From the IMG/VR virus record IMGVR_UViG_3300008255_004085: a stretch of 64,000 nucleotides of DNA, one strand, 5' to 3'. Positions within the stretch are counted from its first letter, which is position 1. Each line of letters begins with the position of its first letter. Below, piece by piece: positions 6,578 to 45,068 of this stretch. Source of the stretch: an uncultured virus (IMG/VR IMGVR_UViG_3300008255_004085). Its lineage: Duplodnaviria; Heunggongvirae; Uroviricota; Caudoviricetes. Under the pieces are notes generated by a model. The model ran no database searches. It had not been told where the DNA came from and saw nothing but the letters and a program-made list of their open reading frames with translations. The position numbers were made by a program, and so were the translations under genes.

Positions 6578-6591
6578 CGGTTGATGCCTCC

Positions 6592-27100: not shown

Positions 27101-30100
27101 GTGGTTCTGTGTCAAGCAAGAATCCATAATCAAGATCTACTAAAATCTTTTCACTTTGAGAAATATTCCCTGTGAAATCTTCAATTTGAACAAAAATTTC
27201 TTTTGAGCCAAGGAAATTGCCAGTGTAATTCCAGACAAATGAAATTTCCCCATCTGCGTCATTGTCAACCCACTTGTTCCATTTGCTAAATTTTTGAAGA
27301 CCAAAATCATCTTCATACCCAACTCTAAATCTTCTAATCCCAGAACCAGTTGTCCCAGAAATACTATCTTGTGCTTTAATGATTAAAATCTTTTTCCTAG
27401 AGATTCCGACACTTGTTTCGTCTACTTCTATTTCAGGTGGACTTGATGAACTTAATTCAAATGGTGCAACAACATCAACTTCATAAAGATCTGAAAGGTC
27501 AGAAATCTCTGATTGAAGTCGTTGATTGTCATAAGTAGAAGATTGAAGAGCATAAATTTCTGAATGAACCTCATTTCTTATGTTGTAATAACAATTCTTA
27601 AAAATCTTAAACCAAATATTTGATCCTTGATCAACCCATTCAGATCCAGCAACACTCCAAAGAAGACTTGTGTCGTCCGAAAGATGTCTTAATGTAGAAT
27701 AAACACTTGAACTTGAAGCATAAACTTGGGCTGTTGAAAGGCTTGCTTTATCTGTTGAATAAGAATAAGTATCGACATAATCATCATAAATTGATGATGT
27801 GTAAGCATTAGAAATTTCTGGATGAGACAAAACTAACCAATATTTTGTATCTTTTGAAAGAGTGACATAATTTTCAAAAACAAAATGAAGATATTCGCTA
27901 TCATTCACTTCGTCAGAGTAAGCTATTCCAAGAATTTCATACCCATTGGAATCTGTATCAAAAATTCTGATGTCTGTGTTAGGTCTATCTCCTGTCTCTT
28001 GTGAGGTTGAGTTGATGGGAATGTTCTTCCCTGTCCCGACATCAGGTTCATCTGAACTATCCTCAACAATGATTAATCTCCATTTTGAAAAATTACTATT
28101 TATAACTTTTTTCAAATCAATTAGTTTGATATCAACTGTCGAGGAAGATTCTAAATCATCTGATTCAAACGGCAGGGCATCATCTGATGGAACAACAAAA
28201 GATTGAGCAAGATGTGGGTATTCTCCTGTTAATTGAATTAAATTAGAATAATTCTCATATTGCCCACAAACAAATTGATTTCCATAAATCAAATCATCAT
28301 CCTGAAGAGCACCATCCTGTTTGATGAAATAACTAACAGTTTCTGGCCTCAACGGTACAAGATTTGAGGTATCAGCAGATGAAATTTTAACAGTCCCAAT
28401 TTTAGTTTTAAAAATTCCGGTGTCATATTTCTCACGCACACCAACATGTGGATAAAGATATTCGAAAATATCATCCACATTCATTGTTTCACAATAAACT
28501 TTTATAATCTCTCTTTTAGCTGTGCCAACACCTTGATAAACAACCATCACATCGAAGTTTCCAGAAGAGGTTATTGCAGAAAAAGTTCCATCGGCTGCAT
28601 TGAAAGCATTGGAAACTGTGCTACTTGAAACTCTAGATGTTTCGACTGTGATCTTTCCACTAGAAAGAAGATCAACCATCAACCCTGTGTCGTTTTCTTC
28701 CCAATCGTGGGCACTAACTCCATCCCATCCCGAGTTATAAGCGACAAAAATTTTGCCTTCATTAGAGATAAAAACTTGCATAAACTTTCTATTTGTAGCA
28801 GTTATCGGAGAAGCCGTTGTCCTTGAAAAATTCCCAGATAAACTTGCAAATGGTAACATGATGTTATATGTTTCTGCTGTCGTGTCCTGGGCTATTTTTT
28901 GACCTTTGTTTCCAACATATCCATCAACAAAATATTTATTCCCTGTGTTCTCAAAACCACCAAAGCAAAATGCGGTTGAAACTAATTTCTGATCATAATA
29001 TCCAGCAAATTTATTTCCAGAAACATTTCCTTTAGCATCATGTCGAGAAAGTTTCCAATAGTTTTCTGTTGGTTCATAAACATCAGATTCTTCTAATGGA
29101 TTATAAATAATTTCTTCTTGTTCACCGGAGTTGTAACAACGATAAGTAGGTTTGAAGTTTGACAATCCTATGTAAACCTGAAGATTTCCAGCAATTGCTT
29201 GGTCATTAAGAGCATAATCAAACGAGAATGTTTGATCAGCGCTTTGGATACTGTCAACATTTAGCGGATCGCTTTCTCTTAAACCAGATGGTTCTGATGA
29301 ACTTGAGTTGGTGATCCAATTTTTATTTGCGGACCAAGGCGTGAGACCTTCATAGAACTGCCATTCAGAGCAAATCCAATGAGATTGGCTAAAAGCTCGT
29401 GCATTGACCAAAAGATTAATCTCTTGGTTGTCACCAATCCCTGCTGTGCTTAATGGATTCGAGCCAGAATATGATCTTCTATCACCATATGGCGGAGCTT
29501 TATCGTTCCCAACTAATCCAGAACTTGAGGTTATCTCTGTTAATCTTTGAGGTTGCCCTGCTGACCTTAAAACATCAGCGGCGTTGCAAACCACGACACC
29601 GAAACATTTTACATTTTCTGTGTCTTCGACAACTTGATCACAATAATTTATTTCACTTCTACCTAGAGAATAGGACCCTTGTGCAGCAAGCACGAATTTT
29701 TTACAATTTGATCCATCTGTCGCAATCACATAGCTGAATTCATCTTGTGCGTAGTAATCAGTGTCCGAAGCATGAACTGATGTGTCCGACAGATCTGGAT
29801 AATCGACCAATCTTGTTGTTTCGTCCACTCCATTCAACTCATCATAAAGTTCTAATGTTTCACCTACGGTTGTCACAATGTCGCCGATCACCGGCTCTAA
29901 TTTTAGATTAGACAAAGAGAATGTTGAATGATTTCTATCTATATTTTTGACTCTTGAACCGACACAAATGTAAAATCCTCTGTTTGTTGTTGGAAGAATT
30001 TGTTTTTCAAGAAAATCATTAATAACTATTGCTTCAACAACCCCATGAGAATTTCCAGGGTCACATGTGATAACTATTTTTAAGTGTGATTCTCCATCAT

Positions 30101-33100
30101 TTTTTTCATTATCTAAAATTATTTTTATTTTTCCTTTTAGATTTCCAATCTCATCTTCCCACCAATCTATATCATCTCCAAGTGTTTCTTTGATTGTTTT
30201 TCTAATATCATAAATGATCCTATAAGCTTCTTCGTTACTTTCATCATCATCTCTGTTTTTGTAAATAATTATATCATCAGTTGTTGAAATAGAAATTCTG
30301 ATGAAATCAGATGGATTCCTAATTCCTGTGTAATAATTTCTAGAGATATCAACCATTGAAGAAACTATTTGTTGTGATGAAATAAAAACATAAAATTCAG
30401 ATTCATCAAAATCTTTGATTTGTGAAAGATCAAATTCTGTTTCAACAATTACAGATTGATCATTTGTCGGAGTTTCATAAACAATATCTTGTCCAACCCA
30501 TCCTTCAATCCCGTCGGAAACAAAATCTGGTTGACCGCCACCGTTGTTAAACACGGGGGTGCTACTGAAAATGCTTGATTGAATTAAAACATGTGATTGT
30601 GTTGAATCTTCTCCTGTCAAGAACTCAACAGCATCAGTTGAATATTCTGCTGCTAGAACATGGTAAGGAGAAAGCAAAGAATCTGTATATCTATTGTTTA
30701 GAATTGTTTTCCATTTTGATTTCTTATTGATCAAATTAGGAACAGAAGAAAAAATCCAACTATCTGCAACAAGATCAGAGGATGCAATGTCGGCAGGTGG
30801 GATTGTTGAGATATCAGAAAGCAAAGATCTATCACCAAAAATAATCTCGTCTAAATCTAATTGATTCAAACTCTCATCATCTGTTGTTCCCGTGACATTG
30901 TAAGCATTTCTATGTCTTAACCCAACAGTTGCAGTTCTGTTAATCCCAGGCATTGCCGGGACTTCAAGAGAAGCAAGTCTGATGTTTCGGCTATCTTGAT
31001 CATCGTGCCAGTAAACAGAAACTTGAGCATTTTTCTTGTTGTTAAAACTTGAAAACACTATCTCATCACTATCATTATTTAAAATTTCAAATTTAATTGG
31101 TTTATCTTCGTCAGCAACGAAGATTGATTTAACCTCATTGATCCTCAATCCATTTTGTGACCAATAAGTATTTGTAAATCCACCGTCTTTTGATGAAGCA
31201 ATCAGCAATTGTCTGAAACCAAGCATTGGATTTATTTTATCAGAGGTTGCGATAGCTATTTTATCACTCGAAGAACTTTCATTTTGAAGAGCAATAACTA
31301 AAATATAATTTTCACCTGGATTTAAGCTAACTCCGACTCCTGTTGTTGTCGTTAAATCAACGGTTGTTTCACTTCCTCTGACTGCAATTTTTGTTCCAGA
31401 GAAGATTGTTTCAATTGTGTCAACATTGTTCCATTCATCCGATCTTGAGAAATCAAGATTAATTGGTTGCCCAGAGGAATCACATTTAGCTAAAAATGCA
31501 GAGATTATCAAAGCATCGACACCATTCCCTGTTCTTATATTTTTAAGATAAAGTCTTATTTTATAAGCCCCTGTTGAATTTGCTGGTGTTGCATCCCACA
31601 TCAGCCCTTGTGTTGGAGAAAAGGTTTGAGCAATAATTTGTTGTTCAGAATCGTCAGCATCTGTTAAAAAGAAATAATCTTCAAAGAAAACATTTGGGTT
31701 ATTTCTTTCTTCATAAAAAAGTTCAATTATTCCAGAGTCTGGGAATTCACTTAATTCAAACAAAGATTTATAACAATCACTAGAAACAAAATCTGGTTTT
31801 GCAATTGTTAAGAAATTTGAGTTACTAATTCCGACACTAACGAAATCTTTATTAGTGGTTGAGCCTAAAATTGAGTCTATTCTTGCTGGCACGCTGTCAA
31901 TATCTGTTGCGAAGATATAATCTGTTAACGCTCCCGCCCCTGCGACACTCATTTGAAAAGATAAAAATGAAGATGAATAGCTGCTATCGACGGCTATTTC
32001 GAAATCTAATTGCCCGCTTGTATTTGAGCCATTGACTGGAAGTTCGAAGCTGATTTCTCCGCTTGATCCCATTGCGGAGTAGCAATCTTGGAAGTTTTTG
32101 ACAACAAAGAAAATTTCTCTTTCGTTTCCGATAGTGAATTCAACATCGGTCCCACTTGAGGCAACCCAGGGGCTACCTGAAACCGGAGAATTTGTGGTAG
32201 GCCAATTGCTGACAAAGACAGTTTTCCAGAACCCTCCTTCTGGAATGTTTTCGTCTGCTATTCCACCAGCGGTTTGTGCGTGAAATGATTCTTCTGTGAT
32301 CATAAACACGACATCATAAACACCATCGGCGAGTTCAACATCAATTGCATCATCGGTTTCTTTTTCAAACCAAAGTCTAACTGTTTCAGAGCCAGCGGAA
32401 TCATAACTATCTGTGGTTCTGGTGATCGTCTTTAGTCTTGGTGCATCATCTGTTCCGCCACTTGTTTGTGTTTCTTTCCAAGTGACATGATAGCTCTTTT
32501 CACATGAGGCATCAATCCATCCGTTTGTTGATCCATCTTCGTCTGTGACAAAATAATTGTAATAAAAGTATCCAGCGACCCAATCTTTATCACCTGCTGG
32601 CAAAGCTCCATATTCTGTATCATCAGTTGCGTTATCAACAACTTGTTCATTTTGATAATCCCACCAACGACCTCTGGTCCCGATCCATTCGTTTTGTGTT
32701 TTGTCCCCGGCCGAATCCCACAAACCGCTTGCTGCTTGTCCTGGTTTTCCCATTAATTTCAATTGATAGCAGAAGTTGGGTTTTAATCCTGTTGCATTTA
32801 ACTCTGCCTCGAATTTTGAAGTTAGAGGATTCTTTTTGTATCTCATTTGAACAGATGAATTTGCATAATCGAAAGAAGATTGGAAAGAAGCTGAATATTC
32901 AGTCCCGCCGACATCAAGCCAACGATCCTCCGCAGAAGGCCATTGGTCATCAAATTCGAGCAAGGTGATTGTCTCCCAATCTTCTGTGTCAACAAAGCTG
33001 AAATCGAATTTAGTTGAGAGATAGGCATTTTGGTTTTCGATGTTGTTATAAATTGAAAGTTCTGCGCCTTTGAACAAGGTAGTTGATGGGTCTGAAGTTG

Positions 33101-33944
33101 AAAGTCGAAGTCGAGAGGGGGTTGTTTGGAGCGAATTTGTTGCAGTCGAAGCATTTGTTTTGATTGAAAAAACGGGTTCATCTAATGAAACTTTTTCATC
33201 TGCATCAGGCCATAGTGTTTCTTCTAAACTAGAGCCGTCGTCGAACTCTTCTTCTATTTCGTTGTCCCCGATTTTAACTAAATCTACTGAATAACTCTCA
33301 ACGTTGGCGATCAATCCCTGTGATTTTTGATATGTCCAAAATATTTTCTGGCCAACAAAATCATCTGGTGTTGAATTTAGTGGGGTTGGTTTTCCTGGTG
33401 TTGAAGGAGGGCTTTTTGAAAGAATGATTGTATCAGAAATCCCTTTTGCGGAAGAATCTGCGGTTGGGTAAACAGTTGAGTCATCAAGGATAAATCTTAG
33501 ATAAACTGTTTTTGTTCCGTCGCTCAAGCTTAATGGCCATCCACGGATAAACATCAATTGACTGGATGCGTTCAAAGCTATTTCATCAGAGGTTAAATCA
33601 AGGTCTTCATTTGTCGGTTGAACGCCGGGGGCTCCATAGCCCAAAATGAAGATGGTGCCATCTGATTGCTGATCAAGTTCATACCAGCGATTGACAGAAT
33701 AGCCGAAGTCTATGTAGGAACTAAAGCTAGAATCGTTAGAGACTCTGACGGCATAAATTGTTGGTGAAACAATTGCTAGTCCAGTGACAGAGTCAAAAAC
33801 TTCTGCTTTGAATGTAAGATTCACAAGACCAGAACTTCGTAGAGTTCTGTTATAGACATATCTATTCCCATAATTTATGAAGTTTGAACTAAAATTTGTT
33901 GTAGATGTCTGGCTTGGATAAGTCAATCTAACGGCAGTTGCCAT
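24165..33944 (-). CDS. Giant (3259 aa) putative virion/adhesin-like protein with Ig-like, lectin-like and beta-propeller modules
   Basis: Repeated W..L...G.KT(V/I).V.F.D...N Ig-like units, AQ(T/S)F...Y(W/I)LV units, LY(I/V)G propeller blades; GGAGG RBS; no signal peptide. Confidence 0.68.
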   Translation of the reverse strand: MATAVRLTYPSQTSTTNFSSNFINYGNRYVYNRTLRSSGLVNLTFKAEVFDSVTGLAIVSPTIYAVRVSNDSSFSSYIDFGYSVNRWYELDQQSDGTIFILGYGAPGVQPTNEDLDLTSDEIALNASSQLMFIRGWPLSLSDGTKTVYLRFILDDSTVYPTADSSAKGISDTIILSKSPPSTPGKPTPLNSTPDDFVGQKIFWTYQKSQGLIANVESYSVDLVKIGDNEIEEEFDDGSSLEETLWPDADEKVSLDEPVFSIKTNASTATNSLQTTPSRLRLSTSDPSTTLFKGAELSIYNNIENQNAYLSTKFDFSFVDTEDWETITLLEFDDQWPSAEDRWLDVGGTEYSASFQSSFDYANSSVQMRYKKNPLTSKFEAELNATGLKPNFCYQLKLMGKPGQAASGLWDSAGDKTQNEWIGTRGRWWDYQNEQVVDNATDDTEYGALPAGDKDWVAGYFYYNYFVTDEDGSTNGWIDASCEKSYHVTWKETQTSGGTDDAPRLKTITRTTDSYDSAGSETVRLWFEKETDDAIDVELADGVYDVVFMITEESFHAQTAGGIADENIPEGGFWKTVFVSNWPTTNSPVSGSPWVASSGTDVEFTIGNEREIFFVVKNFQDCYSAMGSSGEISFELPVNGSNTSGQLDFEIAVDSSYSSSFLSFQMSVAGAGALTDYIFATDIDSVPARIDSILGSTTNKDFVSVGISNSNFLTIAKPDFVSSDCYKSLFELSEFPDSGIIELFYEERNNPNVFFEDYFFLTDADDSEQQIIAQTFSPTQGLMWDATPANSTGAYKIRLYLKNIRTGNGVDALIISAFLAKCDSSGQPINLDFSRSDEWNNVDTIETIFSGTKIAVRGSETTVDLTTTTGVGVSLNPGENYILVIALQNESSSSDKIAIATSDKINPMLGFRQLLIASSKDGGFTNTYWSQNGLRINEVKSIFVADEDKPIKFEILNNDSDEIVFSSFNNKKNAQVSVYWHDDQDSRNIRLASLEVPAMPGINRTATVGLRHRNAYNVTGTTDDESLNQLDLDEIIFGDRSLLSDISTIPPADIASSDLVADSWIFSSVPNLINKKSKWKTILNNRYTDSLLSPYHVLAAEYSTDAVEFLTGEDSTQSHVLIQSSIFSSTPVFNNGGGQPDFVSDGIEGWVGQDIVYETPTNDQSVIVETEFDLSQIKDFDESEFYVFISSQQIVSSMVDISRNYYTGIRNPSDFIRISISTTDDIIIYKNRDDDESNEEAYRIIYDIRKTIKETLGDDIDWWEDEIGNLKGKIKIILDNEKNDGESHLKIVITCDPGNSHGVVEAIVINDFLEKQILPTTNRGFYICVGSRVKNIDRNHSTFSLSNLKLEPVIGDIVTTVGETLELYDELNGVDETTRLVDYPDLSDTSVHASDTDYYAQDEFSYVIATDGSNCKKFVLAAQGSYSLGRSEINYCDQVVEDTENVKCFGVVVCNAADVLRSAGQPQRLTEITSSSGLVGNDKAPPYGDRRSYSGSNPLSTAGIGDNQEINLLVNARAFSQSHWICSEWQFYEGLTPWSANKNWITNSSSSEPSGLRESDPLNVDSIQSADQTFSFDYALNDQAIAGNLQVYIGLSNFKPTYRCYNSGEQEEIIYNPLEESDVYEPTENYWKLSRHDAKGNVSGNKFAGYYDQKLVSTAFCFGGFENTGNKYFVDGYVGNKGQKIAQDTTAETYNIMLPFASLSGNFSRTTASPITATNRKFMQVFISNEGKIFVAYNSGWDGVSAHDWEENDTGLMVDLLSSGKITVETSRVSSSTVSNAFNAADGTFSAITSSGNFDVMVVYQGVGTAKREIIKVYCETMNVDDIFEYLYPHVGVREKYDTGIFKTKIGTVKISSADTSNLVPLRPETVSYFIKQDGALQDDDLIYGNQFVCGQYENYSNLIQLTGEYPHLAQSFVVPSDDALPFESDDLESSSTVDIKLIDLKKVINSNFSKWRLIIVEDSSDEPDVGTGKNIPINSTSQETGDRPNTDIRIFDTDSNGYEILGIAYSDEVNDSEYLHFVFENYVTLSKDTKYWLVLSHPEISNAYTSSIYDDYVDTYSYSTDKASLSTAQVYASSSSVYSTLRHLSDDTSLLWSVAGSEWVDQGSNIWFKIFKNCYYNIRNEVHSEIYALQSSTYDNQRLQSEISDLSDLYEVDVVAPFELSSSSPPEIEVDETSVGISRKKILIIKAQDSISGTTGSGIRRFRVGYEDDFGLQKFSKWNKWVDNDADGEISFVWNYTGNFLGSKEIFVQIEDFTGNISQSEKILVDLDYGFLLDTEPPSTTRVRIEGDATLETDPNESEITSERNADVSIYAYDEVSDIKDFRYNLDFESDGAGQLVWSSWMPYTPNFVQDLGLDDGLKTIVVQFRDFADNADQSIIVHALRDQTTEISTALDKFKIFGKESLYFATTAIKTRTGLTGETLDFGSYAALSAFRFKNSSSVNQTINSNEELTVKVNSIAQTEDVDYTRNENNNLIIFVTPLVSTDVVTMDTREEVCRLYRFNGSVTSMIYEFSSEGERLCTSMKNYGENLYIGFESGNIYVYNGIKMRLSFTLTTTDGGSTTLPVGAMNTYQFAHETRPFLYVGSWKQARVWRYGGNNAIDDYSWKSISEINTFSETVGSFTTNFSDQTNVLSIEGYNESLFIGTGENSIIFSYQRELDESDLSITETVEMFKLSEISSALSGTRVYSLKSFGNRLFAGTDAATVFVYEATTVDQPTESEWEHITEISEDFLKEVYPWEYYESPGRTNPGLSAFVSTSLENSNYLLNILGDRGKYIQFTQNSINNSDLMNNLNNSTGWSFEFVSRWNSGNGTQGVRVFDGDYQLELSIGDDELVLKNGNKSFTATSGSVETGVKVDNDAFTGIFSGGTANVDFYNLLTDTSETDGIKLKVDTLDDGQYPYFEMTSLGITADEDTRVLMKIRASNFSLDSAKFYLQWKKVSTNALIKEKTYMFSVPNNNIWKTFDISPGWIGSLDTLRILVEPTIDSEFEIEYIIIREKTQTVFSTSDLNTYRISVVDDDVDVYLNGNNTPIIHKNAWLENTTNDKQITFGKIYQEQDDSDFDWQSFKVYTGGALTPKEEQIINWNLMNVFAGGKEVKSLKILRDSLIAIVNPLSVEKTTDSVLDLNPKSYILSSEDAVEWGSSDSSIDGIYEEEVVQVFSTVVWDNILYSGTEISSDVINHTKLDLIAEASSTTKSELSSSGNIYNRRITHAFDEIIKDTKSPETEIVIKPNENAGGIKILSFEAYVERTEDSVES

Positions 33945-34028: not shown

Positions 34029-34964
34029 CTAGTCGTCTAAATAAAAAGAAAATTTCTCAATCACAGGAATAACTTCTGTTGGGACATTAGTTTTCCATTC
34101 ATCATCACCATTGATTATAGAGTTTCGTATTTCGGTAGCTGAAATACCTTTAATTTCATTTGGAACTTCTACTTCGTTGATTGAATATCCTACATTTCTC
34201 CCAATGTTTATACTAGAAATATCTGGAATCTCAACAACCTCAACATCATTTCTAAATTTTGCATGGACGAGTTGTTGAACGACATAGAATGGGAAGGGGT
34301 TGCTTTTATCTCTAGGTGTCTTTCTGACGCCTACAACGACCCTCTCACCCGTTTCAATAGCTTTTTCGATGATAGAGGCATGGCCATTGTGAAAAGGCTG
34401 CCAGCGGCCAACGTAGAGCGCCGAAGGTCTATTCCTAATTTGTTGAATTTGATCCCAAATTCTTTCTGCTTCTTCATCAACATTTCTCGGCCAAGGTGAA
34501 TAAATCACATAATCAAGAGCGGTGTCTGGTTTATCAAATGGGGCATCATAACCGGCAAGGTTTGCGACGCCTCGATTTCCTGTTTTTGCAAAAAGTTCTG
34601 CATCTTTCCAGATGCCTTTTTGGTCAAGTTTTGCACAGGTTTTTGCTGGTGTGTCAACAAAAACAAGTGAAAATCTTTCTTTGCTGACGATTTCTCGGCA
34701 AGCGGCACGAACTTCTTCAAGCGGAGAAATAACAGGGACAATAGCAAAAATCCCATGCTTGTTGAGGTAATGGCAGATCAAAGCGACTCTTCGGAGGTGG
34801 TCATTGACAGATTTGGAGTCAAACCCTGTTGGTGCCCATTTTCTAATTGCGTCTCCATCAAGAACTTCAACTTTTTCATTTGATTTCAGAATTTCTTTTT
34901 CAACAGCAGCCGCAAGGGTTGATTTCCCTGATTGACACATTCCAGTCATCCAAATTGTATGCAT
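34029..34964 (-). CDS. cysC: Adenylyl-sulfate (APS) kinase fused to an HxGH nucleotidyltransferase (cytidylyltransferase-like) domain
   Basis: TIWMTGMCQSGKSTLA (P-loop), VLDGDAIR, ISPLEEVR, GYDAPFDKP; C-terminal YVGRWQPFHNGH and ISATEIR; start moved to ATG 34964 after GGAG. Confidence 0.88.
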   Translation of the reverse strand: MHTIWMTGMCQSGKSTLAAAVEKEILKSNEKVEVLDGDAIRKWAPTGFDSKSVNDHLRRVALICHYLNKHGIFAIVPVISPLEEVRAACREIVSKERFSLVFVDTPAKTCAKLDQKGIWKDAELFAKTGNRGVANLAGYDAPFDKPDTALDYVIYSPWPRNVDEEAERIWDQIQQIRNRPSALYVGRWQPFHNGHASIIEKAIETGERVVVGVRKTPRDKSNPFPFYVVQQLVHAKFRNDVEVVEIPDISSINIGRNVGYSINEVEVPNEIKGISATEIRNSIINGDDEWKTNVPTEVIPVIEKFSFYLDD

Positions 34965-34983
34965 TTTTAACTCCAATTAAAAT

Positions 34984-35709
34984 CTATTTATTAATAATAA
35001 CCATTGAATTACAAATTTTTATTTGTTCTGTAGATATTTTTTTATTAATAATAAATTCATCAACAGCTATATCAACACCTGAATTTCTATAAAATTTAGC
35101 TAATGATAAATTATAATCATGAATAGCTATATATCCATTATTTTCTAATTTTTCCCAATAATTATGCAGATCATTAAAACATGTTTCATAACTATGTCCA
35201 CCATCAACAAAAATTAATTTAGCTATAGGGCATTGATTATAAATATTTATATCTCTAGAATCTCCATTTAATTTATTTACTTTTATTCCAACTAATGAAT
35301 ATAAAAGATCAGAGCATTCATCTAAATCTTTCCATCCGGGAAAAATATCCTCAATTCCAATAAATTTATTATTAAAATCATACGGCATAAGATTTTCTTT
35401 TTTAACACATGTATCTATAGAATAAATATTATGTTTACCAGATAAAAATATGGTTGAAAAACCAACAAACCTACCTACTTCTATAACATTATCATTATCA
35501 TTTAAATTTCTAGATAATTCAAATAAACATTGATTTTCTTCTTTTGAAGATAAATGAGTTATATATTCCCATTTATCCCAAAGTTTTTCAAACTCATCAT
35601 TTTTTTCTATATTATATTTTTCCCATTTTTTTATATTATTTAATATATTACTTTTTCTTTCTGGTGTAACAGCAAGCCTTAATTTTTCTTCTAATGATCT
35701 TTGAAACAT
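34984..35709 (-). CDS. Class I SAM-dependent methyltransferase (Methyltransf_24-like)
   Basis: VIEVGRFVGFST, LIFVDGGHSYE, GYIAIHDY. Confidence 0.88.
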   Translation of the reverse strand: MFQRSLEEKLRLAVTPERKSNILNNIKKWEKYNIEKNDEFEKLWDKWEYITHLSSKEENQCLFELSRNLNDNDNVIEVGRFVGFSTIFLSGKHNIYSIDTCVKKENLMPYDFNNKFIGIEDIFPGWKDLDECSDLLYSLVGIKVNKLNGDSRDINIYNQCPIAKLIFVDGGHSYETCFNDLHNYWEKLENNGYIAIHDYNLSLAKFYRNSGVDIAVDEFIINKKISTEQIKICNSMVIINK

Positions 35710-35727
35710 TTCATCCTCCAATACAAA

Positions 35728-36600
35728 TTATAAAATTATACAATTCTTTGGTAAATAAGAATTTTTTTCAATAATTAAATTAAACTCATCATAATAATTT
35801 ATTTTAATCCAATCTAAAAAATTTAAAATCTTATCATCTTTTTTATATCTATCTATTGATTCTTTATATTTACAATAAGGATATAAAGAATTCAAATCAA
35901 TTCTATCTATATCTGCCCCAATTATATTAATTATTTTTGTATATATTTTTATAAAATTTTCTTTATCTATTATTTTTTCACTAATAATTCCAAAAACATT
36001 ATTATCAAATATATCTTTTTTATTAAACCAATCGTTTATAATATAATTTCTTAATATTTTAAATAATTCTTCTTCTGAATCTCCTCCCCAAAAAAACCAG
36101 GGTTGATTTATAAGTGAGGACATAGCATCTAGTGGATTTCTTATAAATAGGAATAATTTGCTATTTGGAAAAATATTTTTCAAAAGATCTAATTCATGAT
36201 AATACGAAATCCCCTTGTCTCCAGCAAATCTTGCAGCATATTTATGTTTTACTAAAATGTCAAATATTTTAACTATATCACTGGTTTTAAATTGTTTATT
36301 TTTATAGTTAGCATATGTAAATTGTTTATTAAAAAATCTTCTTTGAGATAATATTTTATAAAAAGCAATTGGTATTTGTCCTTCTTTATCGCAATAAATA
36401 TATGGATGATTATTTAAAATATTAGAAAAAATTGTGCTACCAACTCTCGGGTACGGCATTAATCCAAAAAAATATTTTGAAGTATCTATTTCAAGACTAT
36501 CATTTAAAGGTAAAGAACCAAATTCCATAGTAGAATAAAATGAGTTACTTTCCATTTTATCTTTAAAATTATTTTGCTCATTTTTTAAGTTATCAGACAT
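35728..36600 (-). CDS. Sulfotransferase (Sulfotransfer_3-like)
   Basis: PRVGSTIFSNILNNHP, GDK, IFPNSKLFLFIRNPLDAMSS. Confidence 0.82.
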   Translation of the reverse strand: MSDNLKNEQNNFKDKMESNSFYSTMEFGSLPLNDSLEIDTSKYFFGLMPYPRVGSTIFSNILNNHPYIYCDKEGQIPIAFYKILSQRRFFNKQFTYANYKNKQFKTSDIVKIFDILVKHKYAARFAGDKGISYYHELDLLKNIFPNSKLFLFIRNPLDAMSSLINQPWFFWGGDSEEELFKILRNYIINDWFNKKDIFDNNVFGIISEKIIDKENFIKIYTKIINIIGADIDRIDLNSLYPYCKYKESIDRYKKDDKILNFLDWIKINYYDEFNLIIEKNSYLPKNCIIL

Positions 36601-37730
36601 TAATTAATCTCCATTCTTATTTAATGATAAATTAAATTTTTCAAAATCTATATTTTCTTCTATTAAATATGTTTTAGGATAATTTATTGATAAACCATTA
36701 AAATTTGATGAAAAAACATTATTATAAGATGTCCCTATTTTAGTTAAATGACCAAAATCTATTATTTTTGGGATACCATTAACCATTGGAGTATGATAAG
36801 ATCCTAAATCACAATGTGCATATCCTTTTTCATGTAACCAATTTAATGCTTTTGTTATTATTTTAATATTTTTATCTGTTTTTTTAAATTTTTCCAAATT
36901 CAACCATTTGCTTATAATATAAAATTCACCACTTAAAAGACCATTTGTTTCAAATATTTCATCCCCGCATAAAAAATTTTCATTATTTTGTTCTTTTAAC
37001 CATAATAATTCATTTTTTTTCTTATTTTGTAATTTTATATGATAAAAATTATTATCTTTATCAATAGCTTTCCAAGTGGCCCCACATGCAGTAGCTCTTC
37101 CAATACCATTTGATAATGCTTGCTCATCTAATTTATCCCAAGGTAAAAAATATAAATCTTTTAAATATCGACTTGCAGATATTATATTTCTACCATTTAC
37201 TGTATTAGCTATAATTTTAACATTTCCAAATCCATTTTTCCATAATAATTCCCTAATAATATCAAAGGAATAAATATAATAATTTGAATCTTTATTGTCA
37301 AAATATTCTGGTACAAAATTAAAATTACATTCTATATAAATTCTTTTTTTAGTTAAAGAACATACTTTATTTATTATTTCTTCTATATTTTTATTCCAAT
37401 TAAGAACAGAAAATAATAATGTTATATCAAATTTTTTATTAATAGAAAAATCTAAAATTCCCAAATAATATAAATCTATATTACTATCTGGGATACATCT
37501 ATTTATACATTGCTTAGTTAATTCTATACTTTTTTCACTATAATCTATTGCTGATACTTCTAATCCTAATTTAGAAAAATGTATTGGAAACCAACCATCA
37601 GCACAACCTATATCCAATAATGTTTTAGCATCAGAAATATCTATTAGACTAGCACGATATTCAGCATCATCTCTATAATATTTTATAGAAAAATCAAATT
37701 TATTATATGTTTCCATTAATTAATCTCCAT
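36598..37730 (+). repeat. 17-bp direct repeat CATTAATTAATCTCCAT (36598-36614, 37714-37730)
   Basis: Exact match at both gene junctions flanking the methyltransferase-kinase gene. Confidence 0.85.
36604..37716 (-). CDS. Methyltransferase-kinase fusion (WbdD-like architecture)
   Basis: N-terminal LLDIGCADGWF...VSAIDY; C-terminal LHEKGYAHCDL...KIIDFG. Confidence 0.78.
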   Translation of the reverse strand: METYNKFDFSIKYYRDDAEYRASLIDISDAKTLLDIGCADGWFPIHFSKLGLEVSAIDYSEKSIELTKQCINRCIPDSNIDLYYLGILDFSINKKFDITLLFSVLNWNKNIEEIINKVCSLTKKRIYIECNFNFVPEYFDNKDSNYYIYSFDIIRELLWKNGFGNVKIIANTVNGRNIISASRYLKDLYFLPWDKLDEQALSNGIGRATACGATWKAIDKDNNFYHIKLQNKKKNELLWLKEQNNENFLCGDEIFETNGLLSGEFYIISKWLNLEKFKKTDKNIKIITKALNWLHEKGYAHCDLGSYHTPMVNGIPKIIDFGHLTKIGTSYNNVFSSNFNGLSINYPKTYLIEENIDFEKFNLSLNKNGD

Positions 37731-39324
37731 AATATAATATATTACCATTTTTAATATCCCAATGTCTCGTCTTAATATCCCAATCATTTAATAAAATTAA
37801 ATTATTTTTATTCAAAATTCTTCCAAATTCAATATCTGGATATGGATATTTATTTATATCATCTAAAACATTACAATATAAAGGAAAATATTTAGACCAG
37901 CATATACTTCTCCATAAAGCCAAACCGAATCCACAACATCCTATTTTAGATAATCCTTTTTTATTTTTTTCATATTTTATATCTTTTAGTATTATTTCTT
38001 CATCTAAATCATATGATAATAATATATCATTATTATATCTAGAAATAATTGTAGCAGTTACGACACCAATGCTGTAACTCATTGATTTTATAAATTTTGG
38101 AATTATATCAGTAGATGTGCATTCTTGATCATCTTCTATTGTTAAAACAAAATCACAATTTTTAGGAATATGTTGTTTAGCTAGATTATATAAATAAACA
38201 ATATGTTCACCAAATTTATGTTTTAAAATAGATCTATGTTTTGAATTATTGGCAAAATCAGAATTTGACATATCATTTGAAACTTTTTTATTACAATTAA
38301 TAATATTAACAGAATTCCAATCTAATTTATTTAAATATTCATTTAACTTTTGTGTAAATTCTAAATTACATGAATTATTTATAAAAATTCCATGTAATTT
38401 ATTTTTATTCCATCCTAATTTATATAAATTACTAATAACATTTTCTAAACACCATTCTCTTCCAGAAAATAACATAACAACAGCTATATGAGAATTATTA
38501 AAAATTAAATAATTATTATTTCTATTATGAATATTAATCATAGAATCTTTATGTTGTCTATAATTCCAAAAATTACCATCAATATATTTGAATTCCCATC
38601 CAAAATTATATATTTTTAGGAATAGACTCCAATCTTGAAGTGCTGGGATGTCACTATCCCAACCATTGACACAATCAATTGCCATTTTTCTTATTAAACA
38701 GCATGTATCTATATAATTTTGTTTTCTTATATATCCTTCTTCTGGTTCTTTTTTAACATAATCATATTGTCCAATAATATTATCATTATTATCAATAGTA
38801 TTAGGAGTAGAATAAACTATAGCAATATTTCCAGAAATATATTTTAAATGATTTTCTAGAAAATGATTTTCTAGAAAATTATCCGCATCTATATTAACTA
38901 TAAATTTAGTTTCAACCATATTTGTAGCATATTGCCTAGATCTTCCCACTGAAGCAAAATTTACTTTATAATATTCAACATTATATTTTTCACAAATATC
39001 TTTAGCGTTATCATTGTCAGAAGCATCATCTATAACAATAATTCTATCAAATTTTTTTGTTTGATTAACAACAGAATATAAACATTTATCAAGATAATTA
39101 TCATAATTATGATTTGTTATTATAGCTGTAGTATTTGATTTATTATTATCTAAAATATAATCAAATTTTTTTAAATATTTTTTTACTATTTCTATATCAT
39201 CTTTTATTATAAAATTGTTATCTTTAGATTTAATTAATACAAAATCACCATCCATTTTATATGAAATAATTTTATTTTCTTCTATTAATTCTATAAATTT
39301 TATTAAATTTATTTCTTTTATCAT
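37720..39324 (-). CDS. GT2 family glycosyltransferase with two GT-A domains
   Basis: IITNHNYDNYL, IIVIDDASD, NIDADN, QDW; second domain TIEDD...CGFG; start moved to MIKEIN (39324) by paralogy. Confidence 0.85.
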   Translation of the reverse strand: MIKEINLIKFIELIEENKIISYKMDGDFVLIKSKDNNFIIKDDIEIVKKYLKKFDYILDNNKSNTTAIITNHNYDNYLDKCLYSVVNQTKKFDRIIVIDDASDNDNAKDICEKYNVEYYKVNFASVGRSRQYATNMVETKFIVNIDADNFLENHFLENHLKYISGNIAIVYSTPNTIDNNDNIIGQYDYVKKEPEEGYIRKQNYIDTCCLIRKMAIDCVNGWDSDIPALQDWSLFLKIYNFGWEFKYIDGNFWNYRQHKDSMINIHNRNNNYLIFNNSHIAVVMLFSGREWCLENVISNLYKLGWNKNKLHGIFINNSCNLEFTQKLNEYLNKLDWNSVNIINCNKKVSNDMSNSDFANNSKHRSILKHKFGEHIVYLYNLAKQHIPKNCDFVLTIEDDQECTSTDIIPKFIKSMSYSIGVVTATIISRYNNDILLSYDLDEEIILKDIKYEKNKKGLSKIGCCGFGLALWRSICWSKYFPLYCNVLDDINKYPYPDIEFGRILNKNNLILLNDWDIKTRHWDIKNGNILYYGD

Positions 39325-39337
39325 TTTTTTATCTTTC

Positions 39338-40894
39338 TTATAAAATTTGTCCATGTGTATTATGTTTACATAAAACATTGGCATCTAATAAAATTTTATA
39401 TCCTATTTCTCTGAGCATTCTACAAACATTTGCATCCCATCCTAATGGTTCCACAGATCTATCTAATAAATTAAATCCACCTATTTTATTAATAGCATAT
39501 CTAGGATATAATGTACAACCACCACCAACAAATCCTACCTCTATTACTCCATATAATTCATCCATATTAGGTATATCTTGCCATGCATCAAGTGCTCTTG
39601 CAGCACAAGCTTTTCCTCTTATTTCTGGTGTTTCATAAAGACCACCAACAGCACCTATGTCTGTTAGATCAGCAATTGATTTATGGAGATCATATATAGC
39701 TGTTAATGGAGGAAGAACATCATCTTCAAGAGTAAAAATAAAATCTTCTACAACCCTTGGAATAACTTCAAGATATAATTTAGAAACCAATCTATGTATT
39801 CCATACCAACCCGGTTGACATATATCAGAAACTTTAGAGTAAGAAAATGATTCAAATCTTGAAAGATCAATATTCTCTAATAACCATTTATGAGTGTTTT
39901 TATCATTAGTATTATCAACAATATATAAAGAACAAAAATTTGGCAATATAGCATTATTAATCCATTCAACCCATAATTTTTGAACATTTTTTCTATTTGG
40001 AGCCAAACAAGTTACTATTCCAAAACTTCTACACTTAAAAAATACATCAAAAATTTCTTTTTTACTTATAATAGATCTTCTACCCCTTTCGTGTTCTCTC
40101 ATTAAAACAGAGGGTGCAGAAGAATGTTTACCGCACCAACCTTTTGAAGATAATTTTAATGAAACAATCCAATCATCACAATTTTCTATTAATAAATATC
40201 CTCCTATAGATCTTAATGCGTCAATTCTCCAACATGCAGATGTATCTAAAAAATTATTTTCTCTTAAAAGATCATAATTCCATTCTGGAACAATTCTTAA
40301 TTTAGTAGGATTTAAATTAGAATCTGTATATTGTATATCACTATAAATAAAAGCGACTTTAGAATTAGAATTTTTTATATCTCTTCTATAGGAATCAATA
40401 AATCCTTCAGGCATATAATTGTCAGTATCCCATCCAACCTGCCATGAGGTTTTACATTTGTTTAAAGCTAAATTTCTTGCTGGAATAGGTGTTCCCCATT
40501 TTCCAGTAATTATTTCCCAATCTTTCTTTTCTTTTAACCAATCAGGAATATTTATATCATCTAAACAAACTATCTTCTGATCTGGATTATTTTTATCAAT
40601 TGATAAAATAGTTTCCTCAAGCCAATCAGAATAAGCTTCATGACAAGTTAATGTAACAGCAATAGTATTTCCATTCTCAAACACAAATTTATCATAAATA
40701 CTTAATATTTTAGATTCTCTATCATAATTAATATTTATTTCTTTTAAATATTTTTCTGCTATATCTAAGTTATTTTTTATAACTAAAAGTTCATCTGATT
40801 TTATTTCAATTGAATCTTTTAAAATTTTAAAAGATTCAATTTTATTTTCTTCTATTAATTCAATTAATTCAATTAAATTTATTTCTCTTATCAT
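39338..40894 (-). CDS. GT2 family glycosyltransferase with two GT-A domains
   Basis: ARNLAL, WDTDN, FIYSD, CDDW; second domain YIVDN, TLEDDV, VGGGC. Confidence 0.85.
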   Translation of the reverse strand: MIREINLIELIELIEENKIESFKILKDSIEIKSDELLVIKNNLDIAEKYLKEININYDRESKILSIYDKFVFENGNTIAVTLTCHEAYSDWLEETILSIDKNNPDQKIVCLDDINIPDWLKEKKDWEIITGKWGTPIPARNLALNKCKTSWQVGWDTDNYMPEGFIDSYRRDIKNSNSKVAFIYSDIQYTDSNLNPTKLRIVPEWNYDLLRENNFLDTSACWRIDALRSIGGYLLIENCDDWIVSLKLSSKGWCGKHSSAPSVLMREHERGRRSIISKKEIFDVFFKCRSFGIVTCLAPNRKNVQKLWVEWINNAILPNFCSLYIVDNTNDKNTHKWLLENIDLSRFESFSYSKVSDICQPGWYGIHRLVSKLYLEVIPRVVEDFIFTLEDDVLPPLTAIYDLHKSIADLTDIGAVGGLYETPEIRGKACAARALDAWQDIPNMDELYGVIEVGFVGGGCTLYPRYAINKIGGFNLLDRSVEPLGWDANVCRMLREIGYKILLDANVLCKHNTHGQIL

Positions 40895-40903
40895 TTAACT
40901 TTC

Positions 40904-42790
40904 CTATCTTAAAAGATAATCTGGGTCTCTCAAATAACTAAATTCAGCAACAATCATAAAAGAACTTGGTGAGGTTGATGTTTCACAAATCAAATAATCT
41001 GTTGTTTCAAGAAAAAGTTTGTCAATCAATTCAAAATTGTCTGTTTGAGTTCCAGCAGAAATAATTGATCCAGAAGAGGTCGAAATTGAAACAACCGTTG
41101 AATTTGATGTGCATCCATAAATCTTGCTAATTAAAAACCCATCAATCCAATCAATTTTTGGAAAATGAAGATAAAAATCTTGTGCAAAATCTTGATCAAT
41201 ATTTGCCTCTGAAACAGAAACTCCTGCTTTAAAAACCTGTGTGATCACTTCTTCACTAATCCAATAACCTTCAACACCTCCATAAGTTGTTGATTCTTCC
41301 CATCTCCAAACCAAATCTGTAAAACTCAAATCACGAATTCTATACCCATCAAGTCTTGAATTCCCATAAAACTCATCATCAACTGGAAGATAACCAGATC
41401 TGATGCTACCAACTTCTTTTTGAATCCAAGCATAATCTCCAATCCCATTGTCATAATAATAAAGCCAAAGAGCACCGGATCTATCTCTAAGTGTTGTTCC
41501 GTTAACTAACCTTGAGGAGTCATCGTTATGACCATATTTATCTCCCCATTCTTTTTCATTAACAAACAAACCCTCTTCGTCGCTAATAATCGTTTGGAAA
41601 GAGTCCCCATAAAGGGTCAAAGTTAATCCATCACCAGAATAAACTATTGGGGAACTCGCATCAACCTTGAATTTAAGTGTGTTGGTTGCACTTGCCTCTG
41701 AAACAACAGACCCAGAACCAATGATCCTCAAACTTGAATTTTCTGTCGCTGTCCCTGTGCCGGTGTCTCCAACTAAAAGAAATTCAGCAAGAGTTCTTCC
41801 AATCCCATCTGTTGTCAAAAATAAACCATGGTTTGTTGAATGGAGTTTAATCCCAAGTTGATCTGCAACAAGCTGAAGTCCAGATTCGTCTGAAATTAAA
41901 ACACTTACTTCAATTTCATCATTCGAATTTAAATAAGTTCTCATTGGAGAATCTGAAAGAATTTCAAAAGTTTCATCGTTTGAAATGTTCTCTGTTTCAC
42001 CTTCGTCAGCATCAACATCAAAGTTGAAATCAACTTCTAAAATTCCAGTAGCATAAAGCCCATCGGAGTCTATTGCTAACCCACCACCAGATTTCAACTT
42101 CAGAAGAAGTTTTCCACCTGAAATTTGAAGCCCATCATTTGATTTTAAATCAAGAGCAATTTCAAGTTCATTTGACCCAAGATTTTCAGTTGTAACACCT
42201 TCGCCACCAAGGACATATAGAACATCTCCAATCCCGATTGTTTGTGAATCAACATCCCCTGAAAGCGTCCAAGTCAAATCGTCCGGCCAATTTTTAAATG
42301 TTGTTGAGATTGATGTGAAACTTGAAAAAGAAGGCGTTATATCTAAATCACCTGTTCCAAGTTTAAAAGAGTTATCTGGTGCTGTTGCATCTTCATCAAC
42401 AGCTATGAATTCAACATCTGTTGGCCCTGCAATCGCTGCGTCTGTTGCAAGTCCAGAAAGGAGAGAAATAACAGCATAAAGATCGCCAGAAGTTGCTCCA
42501 CCAGTTGTGTTGAATGTAATTCCAGTTGTCAATGTTGTTGAAAAAGCAAAAACCTCATCGTCATCATCAACAATGAGCATAGAAACAGCAGGATAGCTTT
42601 GACCACCATCAGTTAAATCTGTTTCATCAACAGCCCCACCTGAATAAATTCCCTCACCACCAAAGACAGTCAATTGAGCCTTGGCATAGCTCGTCCTGGC
42701 AAGAATGTTTTGAGACAAATCAGTTGATGAAATATATTCTATTTTTTGAGATGTTAAAAGATTTAATCCTTTTCGTCTAATCCACGGCAT
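40904..42790 (-). CDS. Putative tail fibre/appendage protein (paralog 3, no RCC1 head)
   Basis: Shares N-terminal domain and LKSGGGLAIDSDGLY shaft repeats with the 45062 and 50855 ORFs; start at MPWIRRKG after GAGGAG. Confidence 0.62.
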   Translation of the reverse strand: MPWIRRKGLNLLTSQKIEYISSTDLSQNILARTSYAKAQLTVFGGEGIYSGGAVDETDLTDGGQSYPAVSMLIVDDDDEVFAFSTTLTTGITFNTTGGATSGDLYAVISLLSGLATDAAIAGPTDVEFIAVDEDATAPDNSFKLGTGDLDITPSFSSFTSISTTFKNWPDDLTWTLSGDVDSQTIGIGDVLYVLGGEGVTTENLGSNELEIALDLKSNDGLQISGGKLLLKLKSGGGLAIDSDGLYATGILEVDFNFDVDADEGETENISNDETFEILSDSPMRTYLNSNDEIEVSVLISDESGLQLVADQLGIKLHSTNHGLFLTTDGIGRTLAEFLLVGDTGTGTATENSSLRIIGSGSVVSEASATNTLKFKVDASSPIVYSGDGLTLTLYGDSFQTIISDEEGLFVNEKEWGDKYGHNDDSSRLVNGTTLRDRSGALWLYYYDNGIGDYAWIQKEVGSIRSGYLPVDDEFYGNSRLDGYRIRDLSFTDLVWRWEESTTYGGVEGYWISEEVITQVFKAGVSVSEANIDQDFAQDFYLHFPKIDWIDGFLISKIYGCTSNSTVVSISTSSGSIISAGTQTDNFELIDKLFLETTDYLICETSTSPSSFMIVAEFSYLRDPDYLLR

Positions 42791-44388: not shown

Positions 44389-44402
44389 TTCACTCTCCGT
44401 TT

Positions 44403-45014
44403 TCAAATTTCAAAATATAAGCGGTTACTGTGTTGATATCCATTTTCAATAAATTGTTTAATTATAGGTTTCTCGCTCTCGATCACATATTCCGAATCAT
44501 CAATGACTACAAGACCATTATATTTCATTTTTGATGAAAACCATGTAATTTCTTCTTGAATTGTGTTTTCTTCATGATCACCATCAAGATAGGCAAAACC
44601 AATCTCTTTTGGGATTTCTTTGCCTTCAAACCACATCGGGATTGAATCATAAATCTTGATGAAATCTAAACTTCTCATTCTCCAGTGATAATGGAATTGT
44701 TTTGTTTCTTGACAAAAATTTGCAAGTTCTTTCATTGCTGTGAGATAGTAACCATCGTTATAATTCATATTTAAAACTTCTTTTCCACGAAGATATGGTT
44801 TGTTTCCATATGGGTCAATTGTGAAAAGTGGGCGTTGAATTTTGCTTTCTTGAATTGCGACTGCAAAAAGAAGCGCAGAGCCTCCTGCTCTTGTCCCAAC
44901 CTCAACAAAAGGAATCCCTGCTGGAATTTTTTTTGCGAATTCAAGAGTCTTTTCAAATAAAAAATCCATATCAGACGAGTGATCCGAAAAGCGTTTTGCT
45001 TGTTCTTTATCCAT
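44403..45014 (-). CDS. Class I SAM-dependent methyltransferase (Methyltransf_24/TylF-like)
   Basis: VEVGTRAGGS, TIDPYG, AYLDGDH, GLVVIDD. Confidence 0.85.
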   Translation of the reverse strand: MDKEQAKRFSDHSSDMDFLFEKTLEFAKKIPAGIPFVEVGTRAGGSALLFAVAIQESKIQRPLFTIDPYGNKPYLRGKEVLNMNYNDGYYLTAMKELANFCQETKQFHYHWRMRSLDFIKIYDSIPMWFEGKEIPKEIGFAYLDGDHEENTIQEEITWFSSKMKYNGLVVIDDSEYVIESEKPIIKQFIENGYQHSNRLYFEI

Positions 45015-45032: not shown

Positions 45033-45068
45033 ATTAACTAATTAACTAAAATTAACTAAAATTAACTA
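45033..45068 (+). repeat. Tandem ATTAACTA(AA) x4
   Basis: Read directly; overlaps the stop codon of the 1920-aa gene. Confidence 0.8.

Follow-up and report, generated by a model that had tools for sequence, protein, structure and literature searches.

How might 3'-phosphoadenosine 5'-phosphosulfate (PAPS) be supplied to three sulfotransferases encoded on a stretch of viral DNA in which neither Sat nor CysDN is found? The question is raised by 64,000 nucleotides (nt) of an uncultured virus of the Caudoviricetes (IMG/VR record IMGVR_UViG_3300008255_004085), hereafter the window, where a minus-strand open reading frame (ORF) at 34029 to 34964 encodes a protein of 311 amino acids (aa), P0001. This protein consists of a domain resembling adenosine 5'-phosphosulfate (APS) kinase, or CysC, followed by a small nucleotidyltransferase (NTase) domain of the HxGH superfamily. 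We favor, with a probability of about 0.55, the reading of P0001 as a compact PAPS synthase in which an unrecognized kind of ATP sulfurylase is provided by the small HxGH domain. The C-terminal domain would adenylylate sulfate (ATP + sulfate -> APS + PPi), and the N-terminal domain would phosphorylate the 3'-OH of APS to give PAPS. The latter would serve as donor for the three sulfotransferases of this phage-like region, which probably decorate glycans made by the neighboring glycosyl- and methyltransferases. We infer that sulfate is the substrate of the NTase and that the kinase of the P0001 clade still takes APS, and the identity proposed for the sulfated target is of the same standing.

A kinase and a small nucleotidyltransferase in one chain

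The reading frame of P0001 ends with a stop codon at 34029 to 34031, and its ATG is preceded by a Shine-Dalgarno sequence (Table 1). An alternative TTG start at 34976 lies inside this GGAG, and the homologs of P0001 begin at the same methionine. Pfam assigned residues 3 to 149 to APS_kinase (PF01583; E = 4.6e-32; 111.6 bits, cut-off 21.1) and residues 183 to 222 to CTP_transf_like (PF01467; E = 8.8e-8; 32.9 bits, cut-off 21). The cytidylyltransferase-like model TIGR00125 also scored over its cut-off (41.1 bits, cut-off 27.7). Sequence matches in the PDB were to APS kinases for residues 3 to 175 (best E = 5.8e-21) and to the nicotinamide mononucleotide adenylyltransferase (NMNAT) of Methanocaldococcus jannaschii for residues 184 to 231 (E = 1.1e-8). 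The fusion of a CysC domain to a GRWQPFHNGH...SATEIR domain of about 130 aa, as described in the initial annotation, is therefore borne out by PF01583 and PF01467, with a second domain of 136 aa.

Of 1549 candidates from a search of 5.8 billion protein clusters, 340 were relatives at E <= 0.001. The majority of these relatives are about 300 aa long, carry PF01583 and PF01467 and, where named by the source, are called "adenylyl-sulfate kinase." The P0001 cluster was found on a contig of 272,967 bases. As a single query, P0001 had no close relatives among viral contigs, metagenome contigs gave a single weak partial match, and the alignment of the P0001 clade reached a best identity of 38% in IMG/VR. 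The clusters of the ESM Atlas nearest to the NTase part are 75 to 92% viral (Uroviricota). Literature searches turned up no publication describing this fusion or a small NMNAT-like sulfurylase.

The NTase domain of P0001 carries the motifs GRWQPFHNGH (186 to 195), VRKT (213 to 216), NP (222 and 223), IPDISSINIGRNVGY (246 to 260), and ISATEIR (274 to 280). The HxGH (H192-N-G-H195) and SxTxxR (S275-A-T-E-I-R280) ATP-binding motifs are present and are invariant across the family. An alignment of 42 NTase sequences was invariant at G11, R12, W13, Q14, P15, F16, H17, G19, H20, R39, P48, G80, V83, G84, and R105 (domain numbering, to which 175 is added for P0001 numbering). The family profile matched NMNAT 1f9a over family positions 6 to 74 and 82 to 123 (E = 6e-14), and the ATP-side motifs of NMNAT are kept. 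Only some 7 residues (family positions 75 to 81) stand in for residues 77 to 108 of 1f9a, a segment that we take to shape the NMN site and to hold nicotinamide-binding residues. Strand 2 is followed by a family-specific invariant arginine, whose counterpart in 1f9a is Gly35 of the G-I-G-S-A stretch; the phosphate of the incoming nucleotide presumably binds near this stretch in NMNAT.

The AlphaFold2 model of the NTase had a mean confidence (pLDDT) of 94.7. Foldseek placed archaeal NMNAT at the top (TMq 0.74), followed by NadM and phosphopantetheine adenylyltransferase (PPAT), and an aligner independent of Foldseek gave Z scores of 15.0 for NMNAT 1f9a (root mean square deviation [rmsd], 2.5 A; 130 residues; 28% identity), 13.2 for NadM, and 13.0 for PPAT. 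The ATP sulfurylase of Thermus thermophilus (1v47_B) aligned with a Z score of 10.0 (rmsd, 2.7 A; 126 residues; 21% identity) and the remaining Sats with Z scores of 6.2 to 8.4. As far as the model goes, the NTase thus shares a superfamily with Sat, and the fold scores do not show membership of the Sat family. The comparison with Sat and NMNAT proposed in the initial annotation came out in part as anticipated: the superfamily is that of Sat, but NMNAT is nearer. A special kinship between the NTase and Sat was considered separately and rejected, since hhalign gave a probability of only 21.6% and BLAST alignments in which a Sat-CysC protein extended into the NTase region were not borne out.

The three sulfotransferases noted in the window all scored over their Pfam cut-offs, and each has a PKxGGT-type loop and an RNP...S loop, which we take to be the defining motifs of PAPS-type sulfotransferases. 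These genes had been read from the sequence as PAPS-type sulfotransferases, and the Pfam scores and loops uphold this. The stated lack of Sat and CysDN also held for the 64-kb window, where a Pfam scan of 30 ORFs detected no Sat, CysD, or CysN and tblastn with real sequences of these proteins matched the kinase part only.

Partnership with APS kinases in viral and cellular genomes

Among viral contigs, at least 585 relatives were confirmed from 600 matched stretches, and 80 loci, with 78 NTase ORFs, were kept for the neighborhood survey. A kinase was fused, adjacent, or near in 76 of these 78 ORFs: 10 were fused to it, 58 had it directly adjacent in either gene order, and 8 had it 0.4 to 2.2 kb away. 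The other 2 showed no kinase in the DNA at hand, one of them lying at a contig end. The commonest neighbor was a sulfotransferase (Sulfotransfer_3/1; 42 of 78 loci), followed by 2OG-Fe oxygenases (24 and 19 loci), a 651-aa protein (23 loci), and DUF2061 (22 loci). The last is a small membrane protein encoded near the kinase/NTase pair (e.g., L096:8893-9318), and no DUF2061 partner was found in the window.

The cellular survey, restricted to one genome per species, confirmed 99 relatives, of which 80 loci were kept. Carriers belong to the Acidobacteriota, Bacteroidota, Planctomycetota, Omnitrophota, Alphaproteobacteria (including the cultured Inquilinus limosus), many phyla of the candidate phyla radiation (CPR), and DPANN archaea. 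Six of the 80 loci gave no family ORF under the simple ORF caller used. The remaining 74 had 78 family ORFs, which we labeled N for NTase and K for kinase, N-K and K-N being the two fused domain orders: 46 were N-K, 21 K-N, 6 N only, and 5 K only. A sulfotransferase was among the six nearest labeled neighbors in at least 24 loci. Within 7 kb, four recurrent Sulfotransfer_3/1 clusters were found (14, 14, 5, and 5 loci), together with B12-radical-SAM proteins (16), ADI-like proteins (14), methyltransferases (13), sulfatases (7), arylsulfotransferases (6), and TauE (3).

Eleven loci of Omnitrophota and Planctomycetota (L022, L024, L025, L033, L041-L044, L046, L050, and L056) share a conserved cluster around an N-K fusion, composed of a methyltransferase, the fusion, an ADI-like protein, a B12-radical-SAM protein, two sulfotransferases, and often a sulfatase. 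In four loci of Alphaproteobacteria and Kaiserbacteria (L019, L045, L060, and L078), the nearest neighbor is an ASST-type Arylsulfotran_2 and not a PAPS-type sulfotransferase.

Counting well-supported branches only, a quick NTase tree requires the K-N label to have changed at least 5 times, the N-K label at least twice, and the label of the split K>N arrangement at least 6 times; fusion and fission have therefore occurred repeatedly. The sequence from the window sits on a long branch of this tree, and its own placement is unsure. Among 200 random Patescibacteria plus the center genome, 11 of 201 matched at E <= 1e-10, with a full-length match in the center genome only; the family is therefore too rare for a phylum-wide profile in Patescibacteria.

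Canonical sulfurylases in carrier genomes

The presence of Sat, CysD, and CysH was surveyed in 50 of the 80 cellular carrier genomes (tallies include the unpublished genome G034). Sat was detected in 4 genomes and CysD in 18 at E <= 1e-20, 6 of them over the TIGR02039 cut-off. Three shorter CysD matches that were examined proved to be real CysD (NF003587, 316 to 344 bits versus 195), each followed by CysN. Neither Sat nor CysD was found in 30 of the 50 genomes, including all 17 CPR/DPANN genomes. Also among these 30 is G016, a 4.5-Mb record titled "chromosome: 1," in which the fusion is split into two ORFs. The sulfotransferase family Sulfotransfer_3 was present at or above its cut-off in 17 of the 30, with a weak match in one more; over all 50 genomes it was matched in 35, of which 33 were over the cut-off. 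These counts are a lower bound, since PF13469 was the one sulfotransferase family searched.

CysH was present in 18 of the 50 genomes; 16 of these also belong to the set of 20 carrying Sat or CysD, and CysH with no detected sulfurylase was confined to G022 and G032. This overlap suggests that the canonical sulfurylase tracks assimilation and not the NTase-kinase module. The module itself goes with sulfotransferases and is retained in genomes that lack assimilation. When real Sat, CysD, and CysN sequences were used as tblastn queries, the 80 viral loci contained none of the three and L057 was the only one of the 80 cellular loci with matches. On circumstantial evidence, we favor a small ATP sulfurylase because of the near-obligate partnership with the kinase, the existence of both fusion orders, the sulfotransferase neighbors, and the many carriers without Sat or CysD.

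Evidence against a small ATP sulfurylase

The proposal of a 311-aa PAPS synthase with an APS-making small domain, already made in the initial annotation, fits the comparative genomics, but the observations collected in this section weigh against it, among them the NMNAT-like character of the NTase, the lack of a Sat sulfate motif, the canonical sulfurylases of some carriers, and the arginine loss in the P0001 clade. The NTase is much nearer to NMNAT than to Sat, both in fold and in sequence (Z = 15.0 and E = 6e-14 for NMNAT). No match to the Sat family PF01747 was obtained with P0001 at E <= 1, and hhalign of the NTase family against three real Sat catalytic domains gave the low probability cited above over 60 columns. 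The Sat motifs QxRNPxHxxH and GRDHA(G) are not found in the NTase: real Sats have FQTRNPMHRAH and VGRDHA, and P0001 has GRWQPFHNGH and IGRNVGY instead. Judged by its sequence, the domain appears to contain nothing that can be equated with the sulfate site of Sat. The weak Sat profile match and the absent Sat motifs place it outside the Sat family. It is not an NMNAT equivalog either, since the archaeal NMNAT models, although the best NCBIfam matches of the C-terminal part, scored below their cut-offs (PRK01153, 55.8 versus 127; TIGR01527, 45.2 versus 181.2). We accordingly class the NTase as NMNAT-like within the HxGH superfamily, in a family of its own. As weaker evidence, no larger fusion with an NTase part was found among proteins of 546 to 2000 aa.

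The genomic data raise their own objections. Sat or CysD is present in 20 of the 50 carrier genomes, and some of the absences may be assembly gaps, the genomes including metagenome-assembled ones. In L057/L084, the N-K fusion is divergent from and next to cysD-cysN, whose CysN has no fused CysC. Because of this adjacency, the fusion may simply supply the kinase there, which would make an NTase sulfurylase redundant. In Omnitrophota L025 and L033 (also G019 and G025), an extra stand-alone APS kinase of 197 aa is encoded beside a sulfotransferase. The pyrophosphatase PF00719 was found in 20 of the 50 genomes, never near the fusion. For P0001 itself, APS could come from elsewhere, either from the 273-kb contig beyond the window or from the host.

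The kinase half also departs from canonical CysC. It keeps the P-loop G8-T16 (G8-K14-S15-T16), D36-G-D38, R41, F48, I79-S-P81, and K116, and it deviates at V53, H56, L113, and L136. Its score for the APS-kinase equivalog TIGR00455 is below the cut-off (107.7 versus 138.7 bits). In the report on CysC of Mycobacterium tuberculosis (Mtb), the phosphosulfate of APS is held by Arg483 and Arg497, its adenine is sandwiched between Phe492 and Phe576, the 2'-OH is contacted by Asp480 and Lys562, and Arg559 stacks on the adenine of ATP (PMC4373884). The alignment shows that the equivalents of Asp480, Arg483, Phe492, and Lys562 are all kept in P0001 (D38, R41, F48, and K116, respectively), and that V53, L113, and L136 occupy the positions of Arg497, Arg559, and Phe576.

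We counted these sites after hmmalign of 163 partner kinases, in which the clade of P0001 comprises P0001-P0008. At the position equivalent to Arg497, none of the 8 clade members has an arginine (7 Ile and 1 Val), and all 151 other partner kinases aligned there have one (74/74 cellular and 77/77 viral). At the Arg559 position, all 8 clade members have a non-basic residue, and an arginine is found in 50 of 54 cellular and 25 of 25 viral partner kinases having a lid. Many partner kinases are trimmed to about 128 to 150 aa (e.g., L128:7616-8002; G039-G050, G015, and G023); they cover only the first 90 to 110 positions of the kinase profile and therefore lack the lid, a part called essential for Mtb CysC in the same report (PMC4373884). 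The NTase invariants are unchanged in the P0001-P0008 clade. From these sequences, the clade would appear either to bind APS differently or to have changed its substrate, and we favor different binding because of the three PAPS-type sulfotransferases in the window.

Alternative explanations

Could the kinase half alone serve sulfation, using APS from the host or from a canonical sulfurylase? The NTase would then have another job in the decoration pathway, such as activating a phospho-sugar or a phospho-alcohol, or be a regulatory nucleotide-binding module. The 20 carriers with Sat or CysD and the cysDN genes adjoining the fusion in L057/L084 point in this direction, as do the abundance of glycosyltransferases in the window and the phosphate-ester substrates of HxGH transferases of similar size (GCT, PPAT, and HldC; Z = 6 to 13 against the NTase). 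Domains of the sulfate-activation pathway can also turn regulatory, as in fungal ATP sulfurylase. We nevertheless consider this explanation, the main rival, unlikely. It does not account for the 30 of 50 carriers that show no APS source or for the kinase that accompanies 76 of 78 viral NTase ORFs, and what very different loci have in common in their neighborhoods is sulfation and no single glycan pathway. A dead regulatory domain would hardly be expected to keep every ATP-side catalytic residue invariant, as the NTase does. The similarity to archaeal NMNAT and NadM, the best matches in both sequence and fold, and the appearance of phage NadM-like genes as weak matches could suggest instead that chance has joined the kinase to a genuine NMN/NaMN adenylyltransferase, the C-terminal domain then serving NAD salvage as in many phages. 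This is very improbable: the NMNAT model scores are far below their cut-offs, the segment matching NMNAT residues 77 to 108 is missing, and the family is accompanied by APS kinases and sulfotransferases and not by NAD genes. A pair resembling CoA synthase, with a PPAT-like adenylyltransferase making dephospho-CoA and a 3'-kinase turning it into CoA, would agree with the Z score of 13.0 for PPAT structures and with the fact that APS kinase and dephospho-CoA kinase both phosphorylate an adenosine 3'-OH. Given a kinase clearly of the APS-kinase family and not CoaE, a genomic context of sulfation, and PPAT profile matches that are weak (E of 2e-4 or worse), we give this idea almost no credence.

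The remodeled kinase site bears on a different possibility, limited to the P0001 clade. Beyond the possibility, family-wide, that the small NTase is a third, unrecognized class of enzymes adenylylating sulfate or another anion, the kinase and NTase of this clade may no longer make PAPS but another group donor activated by a 3'-phosphorylated nucleotide; we regard such a change as improbable. By analogy with Campylobacter, where Cj1415 is a CysC-like cytidine diphosphoramidate kinase acting after a nucleotidyltransferase, the NTase would activate another anion or a phospho-compound and the remodeled kinase would phosphorylate the product. The loss of the Arg497 and Arg559 equivalents in the whole clade, when the former is kept in all 151 others, is the best argument for it, along with the TIGR00455 score and the sulfate-binding role given to Arg497 in the report on Mtb CysC (PMC4373884). 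Opposed to it are the PAPS-type loops of the three sulfotransferases, the unchanged NTase invariants, the retained equivalents of Arg483, Asp480, Phe492, and Lys562, and the absence of glutamine kinase-like and amidohydrolase-like partners among the 24 window ORFs scanned by Pfam. Production of PAPS by a small sulfurylase and an APS kinase remains the reading that we prefer.

Surroundings of the fusion gene in the window

Nearly all ORFs of at least 100 aa across the 64 kb are on the minus strand, and the features bearing on sulfation are listed in Table 1. The order upstream of the fusion gene is a methyltransferase, the Sulfotransfer_3 gene, a methyltransferase with a kinase-like tail, two GT2 glycosyltransferases, a fiber-like protein, a GT8/GT9 glycosyltransferase, and a methyltransferase. 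Elsewhere in the window, Pfam identified two GT9 genes and one DNA methylase. No terminator-like site on the minus strand was found between 34984 and the fusion gene or between the fusion gene and the 3259-aa gene downstream of it. The protein with the kinase-like tail (370 aa; 36604-37716) combines an N-terminal S-adenosylmethionine-dependent methyltransferase with a weak Pkinase-like C-terminal part (E = 0.0033, below the cut-off).

Table 1. Coordinates of the fusion gene, its domains, and related features in the 64-kb window
Feature	Position	Strand	Basis and remarks
Fusion gene P0001 (kinase-NTase)	34029..34964	-	ORF call, Pfam, NCBIfam, PDB alignments
APS-kinase-like domain, residues 1-175	34440..34964	-	PF01583, E 4.6e-32; PDB APS-kinase alignment; site comparison
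Small HxGH NTase domain, residues 176-311 (136 aa)	34032..34439	-	Family alignment, profile against PDB, AlphaFold2 model, fold searches
Shine-Dalgarno GGAG	34971..34974	-	6 nt upstream of the ATG at 34964; read from the sequence
Sulfotransferase (Sulfotransfer_3)	35728..36600	-	Pfam E 1.1e-10, 42.6 bits; PRVGST and RNPLDAMSS loops; two genes upstream of the fusion
Sulfotransferase (Sulfotransfer_2)	5586..6191	-	Pfam E 2.6e-7, 31.5 bits; KKTGGTS and RNPYSHIVS loops
Sulfotransferase (Sulfotransfer_2)	1737..2435	-	Pfam E 1.2e-5, 26 bits; PKTGGTW and RNPLEWYRS loops
Glycan-modification run	34984..45014	-	Pfam: three methyltransferases, two GT2, one GT8/GT9, fiber-like protein
Giant gene (3259 aa)	24165..33944	-	Begins 84 nt downstream of the fusion; own GGAGG; no Pfam/PHROG match

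The GC content is 40.4% in the fusion gene, 21 to 22% in the four genes just upstream (34984-39384), and 32 to 40% in the giant genes. The four genes encode a methyltransferase, the sulfotransferase, the methyltransferase/kinase-like protein, and a GT2, and the sharp GC boundary with the fusion gene suggests that they form a separately acquired AT-rich cassette. When ORFs are taken from their first start codon, 37720-39384 and 39338-40894 overlap by 47 nt and 40904-42823 and 42763-44406 by 61 nt; the true starts of the downstream genes are therefore probably later.

Giant genes of 3259, 3055, 1920, 1336, 1261, and 1167 aa fill the rest of the window. The 3259-aa protein is a possible target of the glycan/sulfate decoration; neither it nor the 3055-aa protein (11906-21073) matched a Pfam or PHROG family. 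The flanking 1336-aa and 1167-aa proteins likewise belong to no family and had no match in 50,697 phage records. The two others are RCC1-repeat proteins with phage PHROG matches (45062-50824, 1920 aa; 50855-54640, 1261 aa). These two and a 639-aa protein (40904-42823) showed short matches to the N-terminal motif of avian adenovirus fiber. Our reading is that the window belongs to a large phage-like element; it showed no hallmark phage gene.

Significance

If a HxGH domain of 105 to 136 aa adenylylates sulfate, it would add to the ATP sulfurylases a new class of very small size. This would account for the ability of many phages, DPANN archaea, CPR bacteria, and other microbes that have neither Sat nor CysDN to run PAPS-dependent sulfotransferases. 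The capacity for sulfation would then be read differently from genomes, through genes now annotated as "adenylyl-sulfate kinase" or "cytidyltransferase." A PAPS synthase of about 300 aa would also be a handy biocatalyst for in situ PAPS supply. For the window, it would imply a phage-like element that sulfates its own glycans or those of its host.

Comparison with known systems

A parallel outside sulfation is found in Campylobacter jejuni, where the nucleotidyltransferase Cj1416 makes an NDP-X and the APS-kinase homolog Cj1415 phosphorylates its 3'-OH. These are separate proteins, the nucleotidyltransferase has another fold, and the pathway also depends on a glutamine kinase and an amidohydrolase. 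Among annotated phage families, PHROG phrog_10255, named "kinase" (Xylella phage Salvo gp32 and proteins of Stenotrophomonas and Xanthomonas phages), has a profile covering residues 1 to 281 of P0001 (E = 1.1e-18), and tblastn with P0001 matched both domains in 9 phage records of this kind. Unlike P0001, these proteins are about 240 to 250 aa long; they are 23 to 27% identical to it and are annotated merely as "kinase" or "hypothetical." The short kinase-NTase member of phage Salvo (L001, NC_042345.1; gp32, 5989-6735) lies beside a DNA topoisomerase gene, about 3.5 kb from a "cysteine dioxygenase."

With stand-alone CysC (Mtb 4bzq and Synechocystis 5cb6; E = 6e-21 to 8e-21), P0001 shares the P-loop, DGD, the first phosphosulfate arginine, the first stacking phenylalanine, the ISP loop, and the lid lysine. 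It differs by the changes of Arg497 to Val or Ile, Arg559 to non-basic residues, and Asn500 to His in its clade, by the change of Phe576 to Leu in P0001 itself, and by a 6-residue insertion in the lid. With archaeal NMNAT (MJ0541, 1f9a; Methanothermobacter thermautotrophicus, 1ej2) and the N-terminal domain of NadM, the NTase shares the GRxQPFHxGH, NP, and SxTxxR motifs. Unlike archaeal NMNAT, the NTase family has the invariant arginine after strand 2, a GRxVGY loop, the shortened segment at 1f9a residues 77 to 108, and genomic partners that are APS kinases and sulfotransferases.

PAPS synthases and Sat-CysC fusions (human PAPSS1, 1x6v; Aquifex aeolicus, 2gks; fungal 1i2d/1m8p) have sulfurylase domains on which the NTase model aligns with Z scores of 7.0 to 8.0. 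The second domain of P0001 has 136 aa versus about 350 to 400 aa in these proteins, the candidate sulfurylase has no PUA-like N-terminal domain, and QxRNPxHxxH, GRDHA, and a PF01747 match are missing. Like P0001, they join an APS kinase and a nucleotidyltransferase of the HxxH superfamily in one chain, their kinase part aligns with that of P0001, and both domain orders occur in nature.

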